Positions 15,800 through 54,105 of a stretch of 64,000 bases of DNA are shown piece by piece (position 1 is the stretch's first letter; each line of letters begins with the position of its first letter). Made by a program: the position numbers and the translations under genes. The notes below the pieces were generated by a model. That model saw only the letters and a list, made by a program, of their open reading frames with translations. It was not told the DNA's origin and did not search any database. This DNA is from a virus (lineage: Duplodnaviria > Caudoviricetes). Location of the stretch: positions 11,164 through 75,163 of IMG/VR virus record IMGVR_UViG_3300042914_003272; one strand, 5' to 3'.

Positions 15800-16198
15800 A
15801 TGTTTAAATCCTGCAATATTTGGAGCGGTAGCTCCGATGGATTAAGTGCAGCATTAACTAACTGCACTGAAATTGCCTTTAGAAAAGGCAAGCTAAAAAA
15901 TCACTACCCTATTGTTGATAAAAATGGGGTTGTTTTCCCTGACGCTGAAACAGCCTATAAACTACATAAAACAGGTGACATTGTAAAGGATAGAGCAATA
16001 ATGATTAGGATTATTGCTGCCAAGCTAAGGCAATACCCACGCCTTACTCACCACATTACCGCACGTGGTGGTATCGAGTGGCTACAGACCTGTAGTCATA
16101 TAGTTGGGGTAAAAGGTTCAAGGTGGGAAGGCGTGGGTACTGAAAGTAATTTTATAAGTTGCTTAATTGCAGCTTATGAAGTTGTGGTTGATGAGTAA
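15800..16198 (+). CDS. NADAR/YbiA-like protein
   Basis: FPDAETAYK..MIRIIAAKLRQYPRL..RWEGVG.ESNF; start moved after class A motif. Confidence 0.55.
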   Translation: MFKSCNIWSGSSDGLSAALTNCTEIAFRKGKLKNHYPIVDKNGVVFPDAETAYKLHKTGDIVKDRAIMIRIIAAKLRQYPRLTHHITARGGIEWLQTCSHIVGVKGSRWEGVGTESNFISCLIAAYEVVVDE

Positions 16199-16283
16199 TG
16201 AATTAGGTGGTGTAAAAGCCACCTATTTTTTATGGTCGCTACGCTCCTAAATTATTTAGTTGTAGTTTATTTTGCATTAAATC

Positions 16284-16700
16284 ATGAACATCCTACGTCA
16301 TAAAAACGGTTACATTGGTAATACTAAAATCGTCTATTGTGGTAGACTTAAATCCAATAAACAATGGAAATTAGGCAATCCATTTAGCTGGAAACGGTCT
16401 CAAGCCCGTTGGTTAGTTAAAGACCTAAAAGAATGCCTTGATAAATTCAAATTGTTTACTTGGGACTTAATTAATGAGCGTTGGAATAAATTCAACCCTG
16501 AAGATATTGAATTTGCCCAACAATATTGGACTCAAATGAAATCCTTAGCAAATCAAATTAAGCAGGGTGAGGTTGATGCCCTCACCTGTTTTTGTGGTGA
16601 ATGGAAAAACTTTACTCCAGTTAAAGGTGTTCCCTATGAATGCCATACCCAAATATTATATGCAGCTTGCTTGTATATGATTGAAAAAGAAATTGTCTAA
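16284..16700 (+). CDS. DUF4326-like protein
   Basis: YCGR..LGNPF..LTCFC..CH..IL signature. Confidence 0.7.
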   Translation: MNILRHKNGYIGNTKIVYCGRLKSNKQWKLGNPFSWKRSQARWLVKDLKECLDKFKLFTWDLINERWNKFNPEDIEFAQQYWTQMKSLANQIKQGEVDALTCFCGEWKNFTPVKGVPYECHTQILYAACLYMIEKEIV

Positions 16701-16774
16701 CCTGTTGGCGTTAGCAAGTACAAGGCTAACGCCTAATTACTTTTGGTGGAAATTAACTAATCGGAGAAAAAGAA

Positions 16775-16996
16775 ATGACCAACTTAAATTTACCAGAAGA
16801 AATGACTTATTACTTTACGGAATGGAAGTCCGGTAATCCTTATTTTGGAAAGTTTAAATCTAAAGATTACTGCGTAAATGGAAGATTAGAATACGAGAAA
16901 ATATCTCAGTCTTTGGGATTTAAAATTAAAATTCAGCCTTTAAAAGATGAAAACTTGATAGAAAGGTTGAATCGTGAAGGGAACTTTTTTATCTAG
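16775..16996 (+). CDS. hypothetical protein
   Basis: GGAG RBS; after class B motif 16725. Confidence 0.55.
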   Translation: MTNLNLPEEMTYYFTEWKSGNPYFGKFKSKDYCVNGRLEYEKISQSLGFKIKIQPLKDENLIERLNREGNFFI

Positions 16997-17080
16997 GCTT
17001 AATCGAATAAAGGTTTTTATGGGAGGCTACGCCTCCCTTTTTTTTGTTTGTAGTTTTAGTTAATTTAATTAAAGTTTATC

Positions 17081-17536
17081 ATGGCTTACACAACAGTTCA
17101 AGTTTCAGAATTAGCTTGCAATATCTTTTCTCAATGGGCTATTAAGTCCGTTAGTACACTAAATTTGCAACAGCTAGACTCTAATGTTTTTAAATGGGTT
17201 TTTTGGAAAGGTGGGGAGATTAAATCCATTACTTTGTTGGTTAAAGGTAGTACAAAAACTATTGAGAATCTTTACTTTCAAAAAGCTAAGTTTGGTAAAG
17301 GGTTAATTCTTGAAATGCCCAAGCATGATAGTGTAACCCATGTTCTTTGGGTTGATGTTAATAATGGTGACAGTGCTTTAGCTTCACTTGTTAACCTTTC
17401 AGTCTTATTGCAGTCTAAAACAGATGCTGATGATTTCAACTCATTCAAAACTCCTGACGGCAACGTTCATGTAGTCCCATTAGACTATCTTGAGTGCGAA
17501 AACATAGGCGTTAAAAGACGTAATCTTTTAGCTTAA
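17081..17536 (+). CDS. hypothetical protein
   Basis: 151 aa after class A motif 17026; followed by terminator. Confidence 0.6.
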   Translation: MAYTTVQVSELACNIFSQWAIKSVSTLNLQQLDSNVFKWVFWKGGEIKSITLLVKGSTKTIENLYFQKAKFGKGLILEMPKHDSVTHVLWVDVNNGDSALASLVNLSVLLQSKTDADDFNSFKTPDGNVHVVPLDYLECENIGVKRRNLLA

Positions 17537-17627
17537 TACTCAATTTTTACCCATTGGTTTAATCCGGTGGGTGTTTTTTTATGTGCGCTACGCGTATTAA
17601 TTTTAGTTTGTAGTTTTAGTTAATTGT

Positions 17628-17879
17628 TTGGAGTTTGCTATGGTTTTCCAAATTAAAGTTGAGAATTTTTACTCTGCTATTTTGGCATTACAGATGAACG
17701 AGTATTTAGATATGATTGAGTATTTTAATTTCGGCTACGCAACAAAAGACAGAAGTGAAGTCGAAGAATGTATCCCGCCATGGGATATGGCTTTAGAGCT
17801 AGTAGACAGGGGATATCGTGTTTCAGACCTTTACAATGAAGGGTATAAATACATCCCCCAATATTGCCCTCTAGGTTAA
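17628..17879 (+). CDS. hypothetical early protein
   Basis: After class A motif 17587; real start likely ATG 17640. Confidence 0.55.
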   Translation: MEFAMVFQIKVENFYSAILALQMNEYLDMIEYFNFGYATKDRSEVEECIPPWDMALELVDRGYRVSDLYNEGYKYIPQYCPLG

Positions 17880-17971
17880 TTTCAATTTAAGACCAGTGTA
17901 AAAGCTGGTCTTTTTTTATGTGCGCTACGCATCTTGATTTAGTTGTAGTTTAATTAGTTGTTCGAGGTTTT

Positions 17972-18217
17972 ATGATTCAAATAACTGTGATTTCCGAAGC
18001 CAATGCTTATGCAGAAGGCTCAGAAAGGAACTGGGTTAGAAGAGAATATTATATTGAGTCCAGTGGACCTATCCCAAATAAAGATTATTTATGGGAACAC
18101 CTGGAAAAGCTAAAAAAAGAAGGTAAAGTCCATTATAAATGGGCTTTGCCTCAAGACATACTCCTATTTGATGATGGGACGGCTGTGTTTACCCCTTATT
18201 TGGGAAGCATGGATTAG
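17972..18217 (+). CDS. hypothetical early protein
   Basis: After class A motif 17924, GAGG RBS. Confidence 0.55.
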   Translation: MIQITVISEANAYAEGSERNWVRREYYIESSGPIPNKDYLWEHLEKLKKEGKVHYKWALPQDILLFDDGTAVFTPYLGSMD

Positions 18218-18372
18218 ATATATAGAGAGGGTTTAATGCCCTCTTTTTTTTATGGACGCTACGCGCCCTACTAGTTTTGTGTAGTTAAGTGGACGCACTT
18301 TGGGTAATTCTAGATAGCCCCTACAACGACTGTATCTAGCTCAATTTATTAGCAAAATAATCGGAGTCTGTT

Positions 18373-19233
18373 ATGTCAGTCAAGCCTGAAATCACAGTTA
18401 CTTGCTTGAAAGAATCTCGCCAGTATCAAGGGGCTAAATGCCCTATTGGTACATTCATTGTCCGTCTATACTGGAAAGATTATTCCAAGTATGTTAGAAA
18501 CGAACGAAAACTTGACGGTGTTTATTTGTTAAAGGATTCCAAAAATATTTACCACAGAACTTGTGAATTTGCCGTTACATCTTTACAGTCTTTAGAATAC
18601 CTTTTGTCCAATTGCGATAAAGCTGGTGGTATCAAAGGCAAATGGTTTCAAAGACAAACAGAGTACGCTGTAATGAAGTTCCGTGGCTTTGCTCAGACTG
18701 CATACGAATTTGTCAAGCCCATTAAAGTTGCAGTAACTCAAGTTAAGCAAACTGTTTCCAAGGTAGCTCAATCCGTTTTCCGCAGATTTGACCCACGCCA
18801 ACCTCAATCATTTGCCAAGTGCTTCACCCTTGAGCAAGCCAAATATTTGTTCGACCGTTGCCCTGAGTCTCAACGTACTCAGAAGTTTATTGACAATTAT
18901 TTGGCAACTTGTGAACGCATAGCTGCTGTTCCCCAAGTTGTTTCCATAGACGATATTGCTCCTGCATTGGTTGAACAACATTCAGAAGTTCTTGAGCATA
19001 TCCCAGCTACGGACTCTCAAGTTAGACAAATGATGGCTGATGGCTACAAAGCTAACGCCAGACGTTGTAAGCAATGGGTAATCGGCGTTGGTAGGTCTAT
19101 TCCTGATTTTCAAGTAATTGTCAAGGGGACTGACAAGCGCAATGCTGAAAAAATAATGCAGCAAGTAATTGAAAATATTCTGCTTGCAGAGTTGTCAGTG
19201 TCACAATTACGTGATATCATTGCAGCAAGTTAG
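18373..19233 (+). CDS. hypothetical early protein
   Basis: 286 aa, GGAG RBS, after class A motif 18258. Confidence 0.65.
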   Translation: MSVKPEITVTCLKESRQYQGAKCPIGTFIVRLYWKDYSKYVRNERKLDGVYLLKDSKNIYHRTCEFAVTSLQSLEYLLSNCDKAGGIKGKWFQRQTEYAVMKFRGFAQTAYEFVKPIKVAVTQVKQTVSKVAQSVFRRFDPRQPQSFAKCFTLEQAKYLFDRCPESQRTQKFIDNYLATCERIAAVPQVVSIDDIAPALVEQHSEVLEHIPATDSQVRQMMADGYKANARRCKQWVIGVGRSIPDFQVIVKGTDKRNAEKIMQQVIENILLAELSVSQLRDIIAAS

Positions 19234-19302
19234 GTGGTGTTCCCTAGCCTGACCTGATGACTACCACTGGGGATTATCCTCCCCACTTTCCCCAGTGGTA
19301 CA

Positions 19303-19350
19303 GGGGCGACTGCCCCATTAGAATTGAAGTATTAGCAAAATAAAAGGAGT
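19303..19350 (+). promoter_or_regulatory. class B promoter variant + GCAAAATAAA leader + RBS for MERGSGR peptide
   Basis: GGGGC-GACT-GCCCC, TTGA 10 nt after core, TAGCAAAATAAAAGGAG. Confidence 0.7.
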
Positions 19351-19355
19351 TTCTC

Positions 19356-19379
19356 ATGGAACGTGGTTCAGGTAGATAA
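19356..19379 (+). CDS. patS: PatS-like heterocyst-inhibitor peptide MERGSGR
   Basis: ATG GAA CGT GGT TCA GGT AGA TAA; AAGGAG 6 nt upstream; matches the C-terminal ERGSGR of Anabaena PatS. Confidence 0.8.
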   Translation: MERGSGR

Positions 19380-19480
19380 TTGACTGGAAGCACCCTATTC
19401 CTAGTGTTTTTATACTAAGAATAGGGGGCAAGGCTAACGCCTAATTAGTTGTGAAGTAAAATAAATTTGGAGAATATGTT

Positions 19481-19657
19481 ATGCGTAATTATGTCTTTGC
19501 CATTCCAGGCAATGTTGGGTACGAGTATATCAAAGCCTCTAATCTAAAAGAGGCAGAAGATATTGCGAATGAAATATGCCGCAATCACTCCTTTTTAGGA
19601 GGGGCGGTGCAGCCTCTGGTGACGGAAGTAGGAAAATCCTACGCTGACTCGAAATAG
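19481..19657 (+). CDS. small hypothetical protein (58 aa)
   Basis: Manual translation MRNYVFAIPG...; GGAG RBS; after class B motif 19433. Confidence 0.55.
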   Translation: MRNYVFAIPGNVGYEYIKASNLKEAEDIANEICRNHSFLGGAVQPLVTEVGKSYADSK

Positions 19658-19709
19658 TTTTTATGGGGGCTACGCCCCTATTTGGTTTGTTGTAATTTAA
19701 GTAGATTGA

Positions 19710-20027
19710 TTGGAGTTTGTTATGGAATTAATTAAATCTGACAAAATTGAAATGGGTGTTTGTTTAATTGATATTTATCGCGCAAGCGGCGATTTATATA
19801 GTAGCTATGACATCGTTAAGCAATCAGAAGATGGTAGCTTTCCAAGGCTGCCAGACGCAAGGTATGGAGTTGACCAACCTGATTACGATGATGAAGACCT
19901 ATCTGATGTTCGACGTAAACCTATCAATATTGAAATCCTGAATGAAACATTTGATAGAAATGGTTGGACTGTTAGAGAAGAATCAGTTATTGGTGATGGC
20001 AAAGTTCTTTGTCATAGACAGTATTAA
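19710..20027 (+). CDS. hypothetical early protein
   Basis: After class A motif 19669; real start likely ATG 19722. Confidence 0.55.
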   Translation: MEFVMELIKSDKIEMGVCLIDIYRASGDLYSSYDIVKQSEDGSFPRLPDARYGVDQPDYDDEDLSDVRRKPINIEILNETFDRNGWTVREESVIGDGKVLCHRQY

Positions 20028-20080
20028 ATAAATTTTATTAGGGGCTACGCCCCTATTTAGTTTGTTGTAGTTTAAGTAAA

Positions 20081-20338
20081 TTGATTGGAGGAATTATGTC
20101 TATTCAAGAAGCGATTGTTAAATCTGGTTTAACAGTTAGACTCTTTGCAGACTGCTGGGACGGAAGTGTTGCTGGACACGCAGAAGAGCCAGCCACAGGA
20201 ACAGAATGGAAAGTAGTGCCAGGAACTCGCACCGAAGCGGGTAGGTATTATCAGGAAGTCAGAATGACTGAAGTTAATCCAAATCATCCTATCCTTCTCA
20301 ACCTTCCAGAAAATTGCTATATAGATGGTGGGTTTTAA
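20081..20338 (+). CDS. hypothetical early protein
   Basis: GGAGG RBS before ATG 20096; after class A motif 20044. Confidence 0.55.
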   Translation: MIGGIMSIQEAIVKSGLTVRLFADCWDGSVAGHAEEPATGTEWKVVPGTRTEAGRYYQEVRMTEVNPNHPILLNLPENCYIDGGF

Positions 20339-20483
20339 TGATTTAGTTTAATCTTTTGGCGGCATAATAGCCCCTATTCCTAGTGTTTTTATACTAAGAA
20401 TAGGGGGCAAGGCTTGCTGATTCAAAATAGTTTTTTATGGGGGCTACGCCCCTATTTAGTTTAATGTAGTTTAAGTAAATTGA

Positions 20484-20963
20484 TTGGAAAATTTGGCTAT
20501 GTCTTTATTAGAAAAAATGGCTGATGCTTCTAGAGCAAACAGAGTATTAGGGATAGATGATCTAGAAGATGCAGCTTGGGAGAAGTTGGGGTATAGAGTT
20601 TATATTCCAAGCCTAATTGGTTGTAGTTCAGAGTATCTTGCGCCTTATCAAGAATTTGGGTTTAATCATCCTAGCAAAAATGAGCAGGTAAAAGCCTGGG
20701 GCAATGTGAAAAAGTCTGTTCGATGGGTAGAAGTCAGAAGTGCCTCAAAAGGGGTTGAAGGATATAAAGTAACTCATAGCCTTCAAGTACATCAAGTTTT
20801 AGATGAAATCCTTTCTTTGATGAAGAAGGACTCTGTATTTGCGGCATCTTTAATGAATGCTTTCCTTGGGTGTTCAGCATTCCCAATGCTAAAAGCAGAA
20901 GGAATTGTTTTTGATGAAGAAATTGCAAAAAAAATGAACAAATATTTTGACGCAACAATTTAA
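20484..20963 (+). CDS. hypothetical early protein
   Basis: After class A motif 20443. Confidence 0.55.
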   Translation: MENLAMSLLEKMADASRANRVLGIDDLEDAAWEKLGYRVYIPSLIGCSSEYLAPYQEFGFNHPSKNEQVKAWGNVKKSVRWVEVRSASKGVEGYKVTHSLQVHQVLDEILSLMKKDSVFAASLMNAFLGCSAFPMLKAEGIVFDEEIAKKMNKYFDATI

Positions 20964-21055
20964 TTCCGTAATTTGTTAGGGGCTACCATGCCCCTTTTCT
21001 TTTGTTACCTTGCGGGTTATAATAACCAATAGCAAAATAAACAGAAGTTAAAGTT

Positions 21056-22216
21056 ATGATAGCTATTCAAATAAAAACCAAGGTTGGGCGGTGTGAGTCG
21101 TGCCACAAATTTCGTAATAACATGGAGTGGCAAGTAGAGAGTAGAGTAGTTTGCATTGACTGCTTTAAAATGCTCAAAAACCAAAAGCTAATAGATGAAG
21201 TAGTTAAACGAGTTGAGAAGGTTGAAGTAGATACAACTAAAACAGGCAAAAAAGTTAAAGAAGATAAGCCTAAAAGAGAAATAACCAACTATAGACAGAC
21301 AGTATTAAACCACCTAAAAAACACTGATAAACCTTTATCTGTCAGAGAGATGTATGCAGATAGAGTATCAAGTAAAGTCACCCTGGAAAGATGGTTGAAA
21401 GTCTTACTGGCAAGTGGTGAAATAGTAACTATGAAGTCTACAGCCAGAGCCTATTACATAGATGCTGATAGAAAAGATTTACTTGATGAGTATATAGAAA
21501 GTCTTAAACCAAAGAAAAAGACAACTTTACCTGATGAAATATTAAAAAGATTAAAAAGTTTATCACGTCCATCTACTGCATCCCAAATTAATGAGGAGAA
21601 AACTTGGGTCAAAAAGTCTGTTTATACTGCACTAGTTAAGTTGGTCGAAACTGAAAAAGTTGTTTTTATTAAGCTCAATAAAGTTAAAAAAATCTATATT
21701 GACACTGACAGAAAACATTTACTTGATGAATTTAACCAATATAAGAAGGTAGATGTTTTAGGTGGAAACAGAAAAAAAGCCTTAGATTTTATTAATTCAA
21801 ATAATAGAGTTACTTATATAAAAGATTTAACTAATGTATTAAGGGCGGATAAAAGTACATCTTTAAGGGTGGTTCATGAACTCATAGAATTAGGGTTAGT
21901 TAAATGCGCGAAGGGTAGAAGACACAATGCCGCTTTGGTTATTGTGCCAATCAATAATGAACATCTACTTGAACAATTTGAATTTGTAACTTACGACTCA
22001 ACAGAAAATATATTAAGAAGGTTTATGGAAGAAGGTAATGCGGTAACATTAGACCAGTGTTATTTTGTTGTTGGCTGCAAGTCTGGTAGTGGTGGGACTA
22101 GAAGATATGTTCGGAGGCTTTTAAAAGAATGGAAGTGTGAAATATCTGAACTAAATGGAGTTAAAACTTACCGTTTACCTTGCCTCTATCCTCTTTCTGA
22201 CCCCAGCAGCTTGTAA
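21056..22216 (+). CDS. Zn-finger + tandem winged-HTH DNA-binding protein
   Basis: CxxC..CxxC N-terminus; repeated wHTH-like units ending YIDADRKDLLDEY / YIDTDRKHLLDEF; very basic. Confidence 0.6.
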   Translation: MIAIQIKTKVGRCESCHKFRNNMEWQVESRVVCIDCFKMLKNQKLIDEVVKRVEKVEVDTTKTGKKVKEDKPKREITNYRQTVLNHLKNTDKPLSVREMYADRVSSKVTLERWLKVLLASGEIVTMKSTARAYYIDADRKDLLDEYIESLKPKKKTTLPDEILKRLKSLSRPSTASQINEEKTWVKKSVYTALVKLVETEKVVFIKLNKVKKIYIDTDRKHLLDEFNQYKKVDVLGGNRKKALDFINSNNRVTYIKDLTNVLRADKSTSLRVVHELIELGLVKCAKGRRHNAALVIVPINNEHLLEQFEFVTYDSTENILRRFMEEGNAVTLDQCYFVVGCKSGSGGTRRYVRRLLKEWKCEISELNGVKTYRLPCLYPLSDPSSL

Positions 22217-35192: not shown

Positions 35193-37604
35193 ATGTCTAA
35201 GCTCATTCTAAAACAGTATGACCTGGTTAGTCAACAGTGGCTACCAGAGCATTGCAAGTCAACTTACCACAACACAATGTTGGGGCATCTATTCCCTAAC
35301 GTTAAGTTTGCTATCGGTGATGTGGGTAGTTTATTAGCTGATGAAAATCCCAATATAGAATACATCTCTGAAGTTCTTGACAAAGGCTTTGAAGAGTATG
35401 TATTAGTCGGTGGTAGTGGTAGTAGAAAACAAGGCAAGGCAATCTACTCAACATCAGAGTTTGACTGTTTTACCAGATTTTTTGGTAGCAATATGAATGC
35501 TGCCAACTACGGTTCTAACTTAACAACTGAATGTAAGTTGATTAAGGATATCAGCATTAAGCTGCTAGTAGTTGATGACGGTGATAGCAAGTCCCGCAAG
35601 TACCGCACAGGTGATTGTCACGGGAAATGTTCTGAGAAGTTTGCTATGGAGTTTGTGGATTCCATATTCAATCCATTCCAGTTTAGGGCTTTCAATATCA
35701 ACCCTGATTGGTGTGCAAAGGGTACGATTGCAGTTGGTTTTAAGAAAGGTAAGTATGACCTTGTTTTACCTACGTCCTGTTTTAAGGGCAATAAGGTTAA
35801 ACCTGGGGAGTATGAGTTGGCTAAGTTGGCTTTTGGTGTGGTGTTTAAGTCACCATCCCTAAAAAGGTGGACCGAGACTCATGACATTCTAGGGCTTCAA
35901 CTAGAGCGTGAGATGTGTGGTTACGACTACCGCAAGTCTAATCTTTCATATTCAGTAGTGCAGTTTCTGCCTTGGGATGCAGTGTGGGAAGACATAGTTC
36001 CCAATGCACAAAAACAGGCACAGGAACTTAACACCCTAGTCAGCAACCCTCAGAGGTTGTTAGATTACCTCCTGCGGAAAGGAGATGAAGGTAAAGGTCA
36101 AGAGAAATCTCGGTTAAGTCAGATTTTAAAGTCTGACGTACACGGTCAGCTATCTACCCACCCATGGGCTATCAAGGCAACTATGGGAATGTTGAGTAGA
36201 AGATGGCGTGAGATTGCTACATCAGGTGGAATTAAGTTTAACTCATCTATGGTGATGCCAGATGAGGAATTACCAGATAACTCCTGTTACGTTCCAGGGT
36301 TAGCAGATGGTGAAGAGGTAATCGTATTTCCCTATCCTTGCCGTTGGAAGTACGACATCAAGGTATGGACAAATCACATACTCCCTAAGTGGGAACAGAT
36401 GGAAGGAGTTATTGTAGGTAACTGCAATACTCTAATGAAACTTGGTAGAGATACCGACGGCGATTTTCTTATGTGGCTACCAGCATCTAAGTTACCTCAC
36501 GTAGCTCAAGTTGTTAAGTCTTTTGGTGAACCTGACCTAGACCAGGCAGGGTTAAAGCCTAAGAAGATTCCCATTGAAGGCACTCTAGGACAAATTCTGG
36601 TTAAGAGTATGGAAAACTTAACTGGTCTGATAACCTACTACATAGCCAAATCCTGGGCGTGTAAGAGGGAAGACTTTGTTTTCCAGTTAGTTCCACAACT
36701 TCAAGCAGCAGTTGATTCCCTCAAAGGTGCATTACCACCTGACAGAAAATTAATAGGTTCTATTGGTAATGCACTCAAATCTCAACGAGTTGACTGGTTG
36801 AAACAGGTCAAGGATGACGACTGCTACCTATTCTACCAGATGTCATCACGGAGTAATGATACTGTAGGACTGTTGATAGCAGAGGTCAACAAGCTTTGGG
36901 TTAAGCCTGAGTTGAAGGCAACTAACCTTAGACCATTCAATGTTTTATTCTCACACCTCAATCCTAGCAAAAAGTGGATTGAGAGGGCTGAGGTTGTGTC
37001 TAACGAATATTCATCTGCCATGTATGCTGCCGGATTAGAACAACGTAGGTGGGAAAAGGCTAATCCAGGGAAGAGAGTTCCCAGAATTGTTAAAGAACGC
37101 AGATTATCTTCCCAGAAAGATATCTGTAAATACTATGAGGGGATACTTAACCATTTACCCCCTGCACAGAGGATGATGGCTGTAGCCGCTTTCTGGGACG
37201 TCAAACACAGGAATAACAAAACTGGTATTCCTAATCCTCAAGCCAAAGACCACGAAGACAGGGTAGGCTTCTCAACTAACATCTGTTTTTTGCTAGGCAT
37301 AGAACAGATATGTGAGCAGCTTCAGGAATTGAGGATTGACACACTCAATATTGTAGGCAGGACTTACTCAGACTTCCGCAATCATATTTTCAAAGGTGAA
37401 ATGATTGTCATTACCATTGAGTCAGGCATTGGTAATGACGGAAAGCATTATTTCTTTGCCAAGTCCAATGGTTATAGCATTGGTGTAATCCCAGTAAAGG
37501 ACACGCCACCTATTAAATTTGGAGATGAGATAGTGGTTTATCTCCACACCAGGTTTGATAAGGTAGGACATCCGAGTTACAACGAGGCCTTTCTTGTGAA
37601 GTAA
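35193..37604 (+). CDS. single-subunit two-barrel RNA polymerase (YonO/QDE-1 RdRP-like family)
   Basis: Catalytic GRDTDGDF (DxDGD, ~36444-36467), GDCHGKCS (cf. DGxGxIS), FQFRA..AKG (cf. FQIR..GxKG), late Q.AVD..K motif. Confidence 0.8.
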   Translation: MSKLILKQYDLVSQQWLPEHCKSTYHNTMLGHLFPNVKFAIGDVGSLLADENPNIEYISEVLDKGFEEYVLVGGSGSRKQGKAIYSTSEFDCFTRFFGSNMNAANYGSNLTTECKLIKDISIKLLVVDDGDSKSRKYRTGDCHGKCSEKFAMEFVDSIFNPFQFRAFNINPDWCAKGTIAVGFKKGKYDLVLPTSCFKGNKVKPGEYELAKLAFGVVFKSPSLKRWTETHDILGLQLEREMCGYDYRKSNLSYSVVQFLPWDAVWEDIVPNAQKQAQELNTLVSNPQRLLDYLLRKGDEGKGQEKSRLSQILKSDVHGQLSTHPWAIKATMGMLSRRWREIATSGGIKFNSSMVMPDEELPDNSCYVPGLADGEEVIVFPYPCRWKYDIKVWTNHILPKWEQMEGVIVGNCNTLMKLGRDTDGDFLMWLPASKLPHVAQVVKSFGEPDLDQAGLKPKKIPIEGTLGQILVKSMENLTGLITYYIAKSWACKREDFVFQLVPQLQAAVDSLKGALPPDRKLIGSIGNALKSQRVDWLKQVKDDDCYLFYQMSSRSNDTVGLLIAEVNKLWVKPELKATNLRPFNVLFSHLNPSKKWIERAEVVSNEYSSAMYAAGLEQRRWEKANPGKRVPRIVKERRLSSQKDICKYYEGILNHLPPAQRMMAVAAFWDVKHRNNKTGIPNPQAKDHEDRVGFSTNICFLLGIEQICEQLQELRIDTLNIVGRTYSDFRNHIFKGEMIVITIESGIGNDGKHYFFAKSNGYSIGVIPVKDTPPIKFGDEIVVYLHTRFDKVGHPSYNEAFLVK

Positions 37605-50484: not shown

Positions 50485-51834
50485 TTACCAGGTCTGCTGA
50501 ACCATATTTTTAAACTGAGTATATTCAGCATCGAACAACAACTTTACAGTTCCTGTTGGTCCATTTCTGTGTTTAGCAATTATAATCTCTGCTAAACCCT
50601 TATCCATGGTTTCGGAATTGTAATACTCATCCCTGTACAAAAACATTGCTATATCTGCTTCTTGCTCAATACTTCCGCTTTCACGTAAGTCACTTAGCAT
50701 AGGACGTTTATTTGTTCTTGCTTCTACGGCACGACTTAATTGAGATAGAGCTATAACAGGACAATGGAGTTCTCTAGCCATTTGTTTTAACATTCTAGTG
50801 ATGTATGACAATTCACTTACCCTGTTGTCTTTCCCATCAAATCTAGGGTCAGACATTAGTTGTAGGTAATCTATCATTACCAAACCAAGTTGCCCTTGTT
50901 CACTGGCTAAACTACGGCATTGGCTGTTAATAACTCCAACACTAACATTACCAGTATCACAGATGTGAATGTTGGGACTTATATTCCTGGTAGCAAGTTG
51001 TAAACTATCCCATTGTTCTTTAGTTAATTTCCCCGTCTTCAATGCAATAGATGGAACTTTTGCATCAGCACCTTGCATTCTATTTACTAATTGTTCTTTA
51101 CTCATTTCCAGAGAAAAGATAGCAACAGGTAAATTGTGTTGGGTGGCAATATACTTGGAAATATTTACCGCAATTGCTGTTTTTCCCATACTTGGTCTAC
51201 CAGCAACTATGATTAAATCACTTCTCTGGAATCCCGCAGTCATGGCATCTAAATCATAGAAACCACAGGGAATACCAGGAGGAATTAAACCATTGGCAAC
51301 ATTAATTGTGTGGTTAAAATTCACCGCAGCAATGGTGTTAGCGTTGGTAAAAATGGCTTTTCTACCTGATTGAGTAACAGCATAAATCTTCTGTTCTGCT
51401 ATATTTTTTACCTCATCAATAGATAAATCGGTTTGATGTCCTAATTGAATTAACTCATTTCCAGTTTTGATAAGTTGCCTACGGTCATATTTTTCTATTA
51501 CTAATTCTGCCAAGGCATCAATATTAACAGCACAAACTACGCTGTCTGTCAATGTTGCCAGTTTATTCCTACCACCAATCCTCATTAATTTATCGTGGTC
51601 AGTCAACCAACTTGTTATTGATAATAAATCCGTTGGTTTACCTTGAGAGTGTAAAACTACAGCAGCATCGTAAATAATGCCGTGGTCACTAAGGTAAAAC
51701 ATTTCAGGACGTAGTTTATCTATTACCCTAGAAATTGCATCTGGGTCTAATAAAATACCACCTAGAATCGCTGCTTCTGCTTCCATGTTTTGTGGGGGTA
51801 AAGACGGATTACCACTAAAGTTTAGTTTTGACAT
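50485..51834 (-). CDS. dnaB: replicative DNA helicase DnaB
   Basis: PPQN.EAE..ILGGILLDP, AGRPSMGKT, FSLEM, IDYLQL, LSQLSR, DLRESGSIEQ, KHRNGPTG; cyanobacterial-type, no intein. Confidence 0.97.
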   Translation of the reverse strand: MSKLNFSGNPSLPPQNMEAEAAILGGILLDPDAISRVIDKLRPEMFYLSDHGIIYDAAVVLHSQGKPTDLLSITSWLTDHDKLMRIGGRNKLATLTDSVVCAVNIDALAELVIEKYDRRQLIKTGNELIQLGHQTDLSIDEVKNIAEQKIYAVTQSGRKAIFTNANTIAAVNFNHTINVANGLIPPGIPCGFYDLDAMTAGFQRSDLIIVAGRPSMGKTAIAVNISKYIATQHNLPVAIFSLEMSKEQLVNRMQGADAKVPSIALKTGKLTKEQWDSLQLATRNISPNIHICDTGNVSVGVINSQCRSLASEQGQLGLVMIDYLQLMSDPRFDGKDNRVSELSYITRMLKQMARELHCPVIALSQLSRAVEARTNKRPMLSDLRESGSIEQEADIAMFLYRDEYYNSETMDKGLAEIIIAKHRNGPTGTVKLLFDAEYTQFKNMVQQTW

Positions 51835-53738: not shown

Positions 53739-54105
53739 AGAGAATATAGTTAGGGGTATAACTGAACCAAGGCAAAAGCTATCAACCTTGGTATGAGTTG
53801 GGTACGAACCAACTTGAGATTGACCGCTTTTGCTTAAATTCCGTTTATTTTGCTAATAAACCTGCCGTTAACTGCGGTGGGTTTTTTTTTCTACTTTACT
53901 ATAGCATCACTTTAGACACATGGGAAGTGATTTGGCTCAGTTATATTTACTACTTTTGATAGATGATTCTATTTTTAAACAGTGCATTTAACTAGAATGT
54001 TACACCAATGCAATATTGTTGCAGTCAGGCTAGAAGTGATATAGCATGAATGCAAGGCTAACGCCTTAGTGATTGTGAAGCAAAATAAACGGATAGGTTT
54101 GGACA

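Follow-up and report, generated by a model that had tools for sequence, protein, structure and literature searches.

The heterocyst is a terminally differentiated, non-dividing cell with an extra envelope, and the HetR-PatS pair, in which the PatS peptide shuts off HetR, the master regulator of differentiation, is a textbook prokaryotic Turing-type patterning system. In Anabaena/Nostoc PCC 7120 and other heterocyst formers, PatS is encoded by a very small open reading frame (ORF) that has ERGSGR at its extreme C terminus, followed directly by the stop codon. Here, we describe a viral locus with the same ending, a micro-ORF for the peptide MERGSGR, in a 64,000-nucleotide (nt) stretch of DNA from a virus of the Caudoviricetes (hereafter, the window), which corresponds to bases 11164-75163 of the 75,163-nt IMG/VR virus record IMGVR_UViG_3300042914_003272 (rated 99% complete; genome GC content, 37.9%). 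The micro-ORF and its surrounding signals, here called the cassette, are probably a stand-alone phage gene for a minimal HetR inhibitor that mimics PatS and would keep the infected Nostocales cell vegetative. We favor this reading for the following reasons: (i) the ORF stands at the gene-start position of this phage, behind two over-represented signals and a GGAG ribosome-binding site (RBS); (ii) three of three relatives gathered without bias keep the ORF, with synonymous changes only; and (iii) DnaB links the phage to Nostocales, and the ERGSGR core is active on HetR.

PatS has a length of 13-17 residues; through its C-terminal RGSGR, it binds HetR and prevents differentiation, and cells that overproduce PatS or are given the pentapeptide PatS-5 likewise fail to differentiate (PMC7476756). 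The hexapeptide ERGSGR (PatS-6) has a dissociation constant (Kd) for HetR of 7 nM or 12 nM, versus 227 nM for RGSGR; it occupies the lateral cleft of the HetR hood domain, where its two arginines and its serine form hydrogen bonds, Glu254 and Asp256 anchor the amino group at its N terminus, and its C-terminal carboxylate is close to Arg223 (PMC4649674). Binding of host PatS-6 to the hood domain releases HetR from DNA, and by analogy, the phage peptide may do the same. A patS6 ORF placed behind an RBS in Escherichia coli abolished the HetR-HetL two-hybrid signal (PMC7476756); since translation has to begin with Met, the construct presumably encodes the same peptide as the phage. In Anabaena, patS can be complemented by a gene that encodes Met followed by the 8 C-terminal residues of PatS (PMC4133259), and normal patterning was restored by PatS-8 and not by a bare pentapeptide gene (PMC5812504), from which it can be argued that a minimal cytoplasmic peptide acts mainly in the producing cell. 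The statement of the first-pass annotation, a model's reading of the letters of the window, that ERGSGR peptides bind and inhibit HetR is thus borne out by nanomolar Kd values and by an active, ribosomally made patS6 product. Wu and colleagues are also said to have suppressed heterocysts, in 2004, with minigenes for the last 5-8 PatS residues.

The phage gene has the design of laboratory patS minigenes and the patS6 ORF (Xu et al. 2020), which share with it an ATG, the last PatS residues, and a stop codon behind an RBS; these are man-made, whereas the phage micro-ORF is natural and conserved in a virus. Natural patS differs. It has 13-17 codons versus 7 in the micro-ORF, and its N-terminal part, described as processed and relevant to patterning (PMC7476756, PMC5812504), is absent from the phage peptide. 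Host patS is a chromosomal gene of HetR-bearing filamentous cyanobacteria with a DIF1 (TCCGGA) promoter that is active in differentiating cells, whereas the phage gene lies in a 75-kb viral record among phage-type signals, and the DIF1 motif, as given in PMC7377430, occurs 0 times in window 17700-20980. Since two defining features of PatS (its length with a processed N-terminal part and a DIF1-type promoter) fail here, the element is classed as a putative viral functional mimic and not as a member of the patS family. A peptide of 7 residues is too short to carry a phylogenetic signal on common descent with host patS.

The same RG(S/T)GR class of HetR inhibitors includes PatX (HRGTGR) and HetN (ERGSGR) (PMC7761841). 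PatX is exported and has a Sec signal peptide, a proline-rich region, and an (H/Y)RG(S/T)GR motif cut by PatP in the periplasm. The phage peptide does not fit this pattern, as 7 residues leave no room for a signal peptide and RGSGR is preceded by Glu, not by His or Tyr. HetN is a large protein with an internal motif, whereas the phage product has no flanking protein. Phage genes that interfere with host developmental signaling include the Rap-Phr systems and arbitrium peptides of Bacillus phages and phage sporulation sigma factors. There too, a virus-encoded small signaling component steers host cell fate, but the hosts, peptides, and receptors are others, and none of these systems is known to mimic the morphogen of a multicellular bacterium. 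Full-text literature searches of limited coverage found no published phage-encoded PatS or RGSGR peptide. This agrees with the first-pass annotation, which knew of no described phage patS, but a protein with CDERGSGR (gp103) has gone unremarked in the already published genome of Aphanizomenon phage CL131. Together with its IMG/VR relatives, gp103 is likewise a case of a phage of a Nostocales host carrying the PatS motif; these are, however, proteins of 145-282 amino acids (aa) in which the motif lies within folded or linker sequence, and they have no relation to the micro-ORF cassette.

The micro-ORF reads ATG GAA CGT GGT TCA GGT AGA TAA, that is, MERGSGR and a stop (7 codons plus TAA), and a longer reading is precluded by a TAA in the same frame, 12 nt before the ATG. 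Both the ORF and the AAGGAG 6 nt upstream match the first-pass annotation exactly. Translated in all six frames, the complete 75,163-nt genome yields a single RG[ST]GR, that of this micro-ORF. The micro-ORF is located in a 247-nt gap between a 286-aa ORF (18373-19233) and a 58-aa ORF (19481-19657), and no ORF of at least 40 aa was found on either strand of this gap (19234-19480). The core elements are the following (window coordinates).

19303..19330, plus strand: promoter-like element, consisting of a GC mini-hairpin GGGGCGACTGCCCC, 8 nt, and TGAAGT; recognized by motif over-representation and putatively a promoter.
19333..19343, plus strand: 5' leader TAGCAAAATAA, a conserved 11-mer with 9 copies.
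19344..19349, plus strand: Shine-Dalgarno sequence AAGGAG, with a 6-nt spacer to the ATG; the related viral contig L010 has ATGGAG, with GGAG retained.
19356..19379, plus strand: micro-ORF MERGSGR, the last six residues of which are PatS-6.

These signals are those with which this phage starts its genes. The hairpin-plus-box pattern GGGG-N6-CCCC-N8-TGANGT has 6 copies in the window, all on the plus strand, against 0.00 expected (0 of 100 shuffles reached 6). Each of the other five has an ATG 7-37 nt downstream that starts an ORF of 98-280 aa; the copy in the cassette lies 25 nt upstream of the micro-ORF start, which is the sole ATG within 80 nt of it. The TAGCAAAATAA leader occurs 9 times in the window versus 0.22 expected, again a number reached in 0 of 100 shuffles, and in 7 of its 8 other copies, the first ATG lies at +12 to +30 nt and opens an ORF of 118-543 aa, DnaB included. 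The ATG of the micro-ORF stands at +12 from the leader, the same spacing as in the neighboring 286-aa gene. A GGAG whose last base lies 5-13 nt before the start codon precedes 21 of 73 ORFs of at least 100 aa versus 82 of 2288 ATGs in the genome as a whole (3.6%), an enrichment of about 8-fold. The gene-start pattern of this phage (a leader at +12 to +30 and/or a hairpin-box element, with a GGAG RBS) is therefore present at the micro-ORF. The cassette itself (micro-ORF, RBS, hairpins, and leader) is confirmed, and the hairpin-promoter variant and the phage leader that the first-pass annotation had placed upstream of the micro-ORF both proved to be real, over-represented motifs. The promoter, 5' untranslated region, and terminator functions of these signals are putative, being deduced from over-representation and from position relative to ORFs; a sigma-70 scan of the cassette returned just weak sigma-70-like sites. 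One leader copy, at window 53845-53855 (minus strand), is the sole copy of the nine without an ATG-initiated ORF behind it (longest start, 20 aa), and may mark a non-coding RNA or a mis-set start.

Two hairpins bracket the cassette.

19262..19300, plus strand: hairpin 1, with 12-nt arms that are 100% complementary and a 15-nt loop, behind the stop codon (19233) of the 286-aa gene.
19390..19429, plus strand: hairpin 2, with 16-nt arms that are 88% complementary; a 3'-end, terminator-like or stabilizing element.

Strong flanking hairpins had been noted before and both are real, but the bounds of hairpin 2 are 19390-19429 rather than 19393-19426. Hairpin 1 probably serves the upstream 286-aa gene as a 3'-end or terminator element; it is retained in the related viral contigs L009 and L010, where one change gives a G-U pair, and its left arm is altered in a third relative, L011, at a recombination junction. 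Hairpin 2 dominates the RNA fold of 19325-19440 (-32 kcal/mol, z -2.81). An exact 43-nt copy (of 19393-19435) stands at window 20372-20414 behind an 85-aa ORF, and because it thus recurs behind another small gene, hairpin 2 appears to be a general 3' element. In L010, A>C at 19392 replaces an A-G mismatch of hairpin 2 with a C-G pair. The cassette matches no Rfam family (top score, 13.9 bits versus a 289-bit threshold).

Relatives were gathered via the neighboring 286-aa protein, a search that is independent of the state of the micro-ORF. MERGSGR-stop is retained in 3 of the 3 viral contigs found in this way (L009, L010, and L011), and a fourth copy, on metagenome contig L084, came from a pattern scan of metagenome contigs, in which the other 62 stretches had different peptides or were unrelated, mostly in high-GC contexts. 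A search with the large terminase subunit (TerL) returned close relatives only, of which one (L111) ends before the cassette site. In core regions, the relatives are 93-98% identical to the window, whereas the region at ~15.8-21 kb of the window is mosaic and differs in gene content. Within this mosaic, the 179-nt cassette (19262-19440) differs from L009, L010, and L011 at 1, 10, and 4 positions, respectively, while the nucleotide identity of the adjacent gene to the same contigs is 84.5%, 77.3%, and 59.1%. In L010, window 19458-20370 is missing together with its genes, and in L009, an insertion of ~1.1 kb follows the cassette; because both keep the cassette, it appears to be an independent module. 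The same region (window ~15800-21000) is a mosaic of small genes, each with its own hairpin element, and contigs from the runs X2 and X3 have joints there that skip 333-1004 nt.

The substitutions within the micro-ORF are all synonymous. In L010, 3 of 24 positions differ (19364, 19373, and 19376), changing CGT to CGC, GGT to GGC, and AGA to AGG, all at third positions; by enumeration, three changes would all be synonymous with a probability of 0.013 if any change is allowed, 0.037 for transitions, and 0.025 for transitions at three distinct sites. In line with the prediction of the first-pass annotation, every related contig covering the site keeps the peptide. The gap holds two small alternative ORFs, a 28-aa ORF in sense (19257-19343) and a 39-aa ORF in antisense (19274-19393), and a 2-nt deletion in the L010 leader (19337-19338) breaks both, the sole alternatives. 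Each was rejected as a real gene: the start region of the sense ORF is also missing in L011, and its frame, like that of the antisense ORF, is shifted by the deletion.

The host of the phage was approached through its replicative helicase, DnaB (window 50485-51834, minus strand), which has very strong Pfam DnaB matches and is 59-62% identical to the chromosomal replicative helicases of Nostocales. Among the best 120 matches listed, all 52 that carry an organism name are from heterocyst-forming Nostocales, including Nostoc, Aliinostoc, Dolichospermum, Aphanizomenon, Anabaena, Trichormus, and Fischerella, and also Chlorogloeopsis, Calothrix, Scytonema, Brasilonema, Rhizonema, and others. The closest DnaB among deposited phages, that of Aphanizomenon phage CL131, is 45.9% identical. 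The Nostocales matches suggest that the phage dnaB is a captured host replicative helicase. In the relative L116, DnaB is just 62% identical despite a TerL identity of 94%, and the DnaB module has therefore been swapped. The expectation of the first-pass annotation that the host should have hetR is in keeping with this link to the hetR-bearing Nostocales. A HetR family search gave no match in the phage, nor in 14 control genomes, and is hence uninformative. Leaving a possible source run apart, at least half of the sampled sequence words were found in each of 6 runs of 6 studies (5 labeled as lake water and 1 as algae metagenome); the wastewater runs X23 and X24 had small word shares, which were not counted as habitat evidence.

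The peptide match has to be set against chance. From base composition, 0.0020 occurrences of ERGSGR and 2e-6 of MERGSGR-stop are expected for the genome. The RBS-plus-ORF pattern returned 29 stretches in 596 Gb of prokaryote genomes, of which 3 are true MERGSGR-stop matches, all on non-cyanobacterial contigs with a GC content of 61-68%; there was no cyanobacterial match in these 596 Gb, and hence no prophage or host copy. The significance of the micro-ORF comes from the combination of a Nostocales-linked phage, the layout, and the conservation, and not from the peptide match alone.

A mechanism can be proposed in which transcription would start from the phage hairpin-plus-box element and end, or be stabilized, at hairpin 2, and in which, as the layout implies, ribosomes would initiate at the ATG that follows the standard leader by 12 nt and AAGGAG by 6 nt. 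MERGSGR, with its Met retained or trimmed by host peptidases, would then bind the lateral cleft of the HetR hood domain via the RGSGR core and the free C-terminal carboxylate, as is established for PatS-6, and HetR would be released from DNA, as is established for ERGSGR. The infected vegetative cell would be unable to commit to the heterocyst fate and might, when nitrogen is limiting, go on producing phage. For this proposal, an effect confined to the infected cell suffices; spread of the peptide to neighboring cells is speculation.

If this holds, it would be the first case, as far as literature searches show, of a phage taking over the developmental morphogen of a multicellular bacterium, and in Nostocales that form blooms, infection could change heterocyst frequency and hence nitrogen fixation. 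A minimal inhibitor that evolved in nature, together with its natural variants, would also bear on which form of PatS acts in vivo and on how far an N-terminal extension is tolerated. The finding would likewise show that gene callers overlook functional phage genes shorter than 10 codons. A PatS-insensitive hetR allele (R223W) exists, and CL131 and Aphanizomenon flos-aquae are an isolated phage-host pair with a related motif protein.

Several points weigh against a viral HetR inhibitor. Translation of MERGSGR and its binding to HetR are deduced from the layout and by analogy with ERGSGR. Given the specificity of methionine aminopeptidase, the Met before Glu is expected to be retained, which makes it doubtful that the peptide is "pre-processed," as the first-pass annotation had it. 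That doubt is strengthened by Hu 2015, where it is argued that extending PatS-6 to at least 7 residues causes steric hindrance and lowers HetR affinity (PMC4649674). As for the host, a planktonic Nostocales is likely, a conclusion drawn from one captured gene. The closest TerL is that of Synechococcus phage S-EIVl (43%), and the sigma-like protein of the phage (Pfam Sigma70_r2) has no Nostocales match; its relatives are phage-like, and its sole cyanobacterial named match is a Trichocoleus protein (43% over 59% of the length). An intrinsic-terminator scan made no call at either hairpin, and a U tract is missing from hairpin 2. With 5 contigs of 93-98% core identity, the family is small, and the test of purifying selection on the peptide has low power, with one diverged relative (3 substitutions) and one reconstructed variant. 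In L010, the cassette has 7 differences in 155 non-coding nt versus 3 in the 24 nt of the ORF; as the non-coding parts are conserved at least as well as the ORF, selection may act on DNA or RNA signals. With many windows scanned, the chance of M-ERGSGR-stop arising somewhere is not negligible.

The sequencing runs add a variant and a presence, each with its own limits. In the DNA run X2, one contig (depth 20.3 of 31.1) has insertions of 4+1 nt before the ATG and of 3+1+2 nt just behind it. Applied to the reference, these give an in-frame two-codon extension, MLDERGSGR-stop (9 codons), with a longer RBS; this reconstruction was built from the insertion list, and substitutions outside that list could alter it. 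If the reconstruction is right, the population holds a second form, the C terminus of which, DERGSGR, matches PatS further. In the RNA-seq metatranscriptome run X22, a 193-nt contig spans 19239-19431 with 2 differences, and other contigs cover parts of the neighboring genes; as an RNA library may hold DNA, these contigs show presence only. The ends of the 193-nt contig meet a repeat and a variant branch and are therefore uninformative on transcript ends, and the parts of 17000-22000 left uncovered by X22 prove nothing.

The strongest rival explanation is that the cassette is a non-coding regulatory or small-RNA module, and that the conserved RNA or DNA element only happens to contain an ORF. 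The high conservation of the whole 179-nt cassette, non-coding parts included, would fit such a module, as would an RNA fold more stable than shuffles (z -2.81), the recurrence of hairpin 2 elsewhere, and the leader copy at window 53855 (minus strand) that stands without an obvious ORF. However, an incidental ORF is unlikely to spell a known 6-residue ligand that ends at the stop codon, when 0.0020 ERGSGR are expected per genome, and the synonymous-only changes and the in-frame two-codon insertion that keeps the motif are left unexplained. The distance from leader to ATG (+12) also equals that of the 286-aa gene, ORFs of 118-543 aa start behind 7 of the 8 other leaders, and no Rfam family was matched (13.9 versus 289 bits). 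We consider a non-coding module unlikely. That an AT-rich intergenic stretch happens to read MERGSGR-stop, kept merely through close kinship, is quite improbable in our judgment. The core identity of 93-98% does mean that identity in L009, L011, and L084 weighs little, and MERGSGR-stop with a GGAG RBS does arise (3 times in 596 Gb of genomes, with 7 unrelated cases among the metagenome matches) when very many windows are scanned. Yet the local region has diverged, the adjacent gene being 59-85% identical versus 94-99% for the cassette; the expectation for the genome is 2e-6; the phage is tied to exactly those hosts that offer the peptide a target; and the ORF carries the phage's own gene-start signals.

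Two further alternatives accept that the peptide is made. MERGSGR could act on something other than HetR, such as a PatS/PatX peptidase or exporter, a HetL-type immunity protein, or a phage protein. A retained Met should weaken HetR binding, and hosts do possess proteins that act on RGSGR peptides, such as the exporter HetC and the peptidase PatP. To this we give little credence, as isothermal titration calorimetry detected no HetL-PatS interaction (PMC7476756), HetR is the sole documented direct binding partner of ERGSGR in the available excerpts (PMC7476756, PMC4649674), and Met-extended PatS-8 is reported there as active in vivo (PMC4133259). It is very improbable that the micro-ORF is a cis-acting leader peptide (an upstream ORF) that regulates the 58-aa gene at 19481. 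It does lie upstream of this gene on the same strand, with a hairpin in between as in attenuators, but L010 has lost the 58-aa gene and its neighbors and still keeps the cassette, L009 has 1.1 kb in between, the 58-aa gene owns a hairpin-box element and a GGAG, and a leader peptide needs no ERGSGR.

RGSGR motifs also occur in other phages of this host group. One case is a hypothetical protein of 145 aa in Aphanizomenon phage vB_AphaS-CL131, which ends in CDERGSGR, the exact PatS-8 octapeptide, plus 9 residues.

L248:6557-6994, equal to MG209611.1 87056-87493, minus strand: CL131 gp103.

In the same phage, gp091 (L248:617-1015, minus strand) begins MRTKSHRGSGR, and a third motif, RGTGR, lies near record position 101322; in total, the CL131 genome has 3 RG[ST]GR versus 0.20 expected (P 0.0012). 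The text of the CL131 genome paper has 0 matches for heterocyst, patS, RGSGR, hetR, or gp103. Close relatives of gp103 keep the motif, and a 44%-identical homologue has RGSER. A survey of 80 viral loci related by DnaB (1.27 Mb) revealed an additional lineage, L125-L129 (GC 38-39%), with an internal motif: a protein of 271-282 aa, encoded ~1 kb behind dnaB (L125:11802-12614, plus strand), contains YIDDERGSGR. Its N-terminal 110 aa have 9 matches, all 9 being Nodularia phage proteins that are themselves without the motif, and it shows weak homology to CL131 gp103 (E 5e-4). No RG[ST]GR was found in three Nodularia phage genomes.

A second micro-ORF, MTERGSGR-stop (8 codons), is present in an AT-rich viral lineage (GC 32-33%) at L250:5622-5648 and L249:4213-4239, both on the minus strand, on contigs of 127 and 34 kb; its codons differ from those of the MERGSGR gene, and it has no GGAG. 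These are two contigs of one lineage, and the number of chance matches to the pattern in IMG/VR is roughly estimated to be of the same order, so that the occurrence is compatible with chance. It is a tentative and rather doubtful extension of our reading that mimicry of RGSGR morphogens is a general, convergent strategy of viruses of multicellular cyanobacteria, with minimal, septal-junction-sized peptides that also act beyond the infected cell. On this extended reading, the micro-ORFs MERGSGR, MLDERGSGR, and MTERGSGR and the larger CDERGSGR and DDERGSGR proteins would have arisen independently in unrelated phage lineages, a stretch of filament might be held vegetative and phage-permissive ahead of infection, and nitrogen fixation by blooms might be lowered.

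In the DnaB-related records G001-G005 (415 kb), there are 4 RG[ST]GR versus ~1 by chance, the latter a rough, uncomputed estimate, and these matches are not distinguishable from chance. One of them, in G001 (83 kb; L203:1477-1530, plus strand), is an intergenic 17-codon ORF, MNQDYIPHRGSGRKGAE-stop, that overlaps the purine-rich RBS of the next gene; G003 (L195) has a similar AHRGSGRKGESG-stop without a start codon. Dolichospermum phage Dfl-JY45 (PP438435.1, loci L219-L247) has many RGSGR matches in arginine-rich off-frames, and its sampled stretches have a GC content of 64-70%, odd for the phage of a low-GC host.

Around the cassette, Pfam and PHROGs returned nothing for the small neighboring genes, and window 18300-20400 has no DNA match among deposited phages. 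There is no tyrosine integrase in the genome. An 803-aa protein at window 35193-37604 (plus strand) has no tblastn match in 50,697 deposited phage records and matches PHROG 34895 (E 5e-29).

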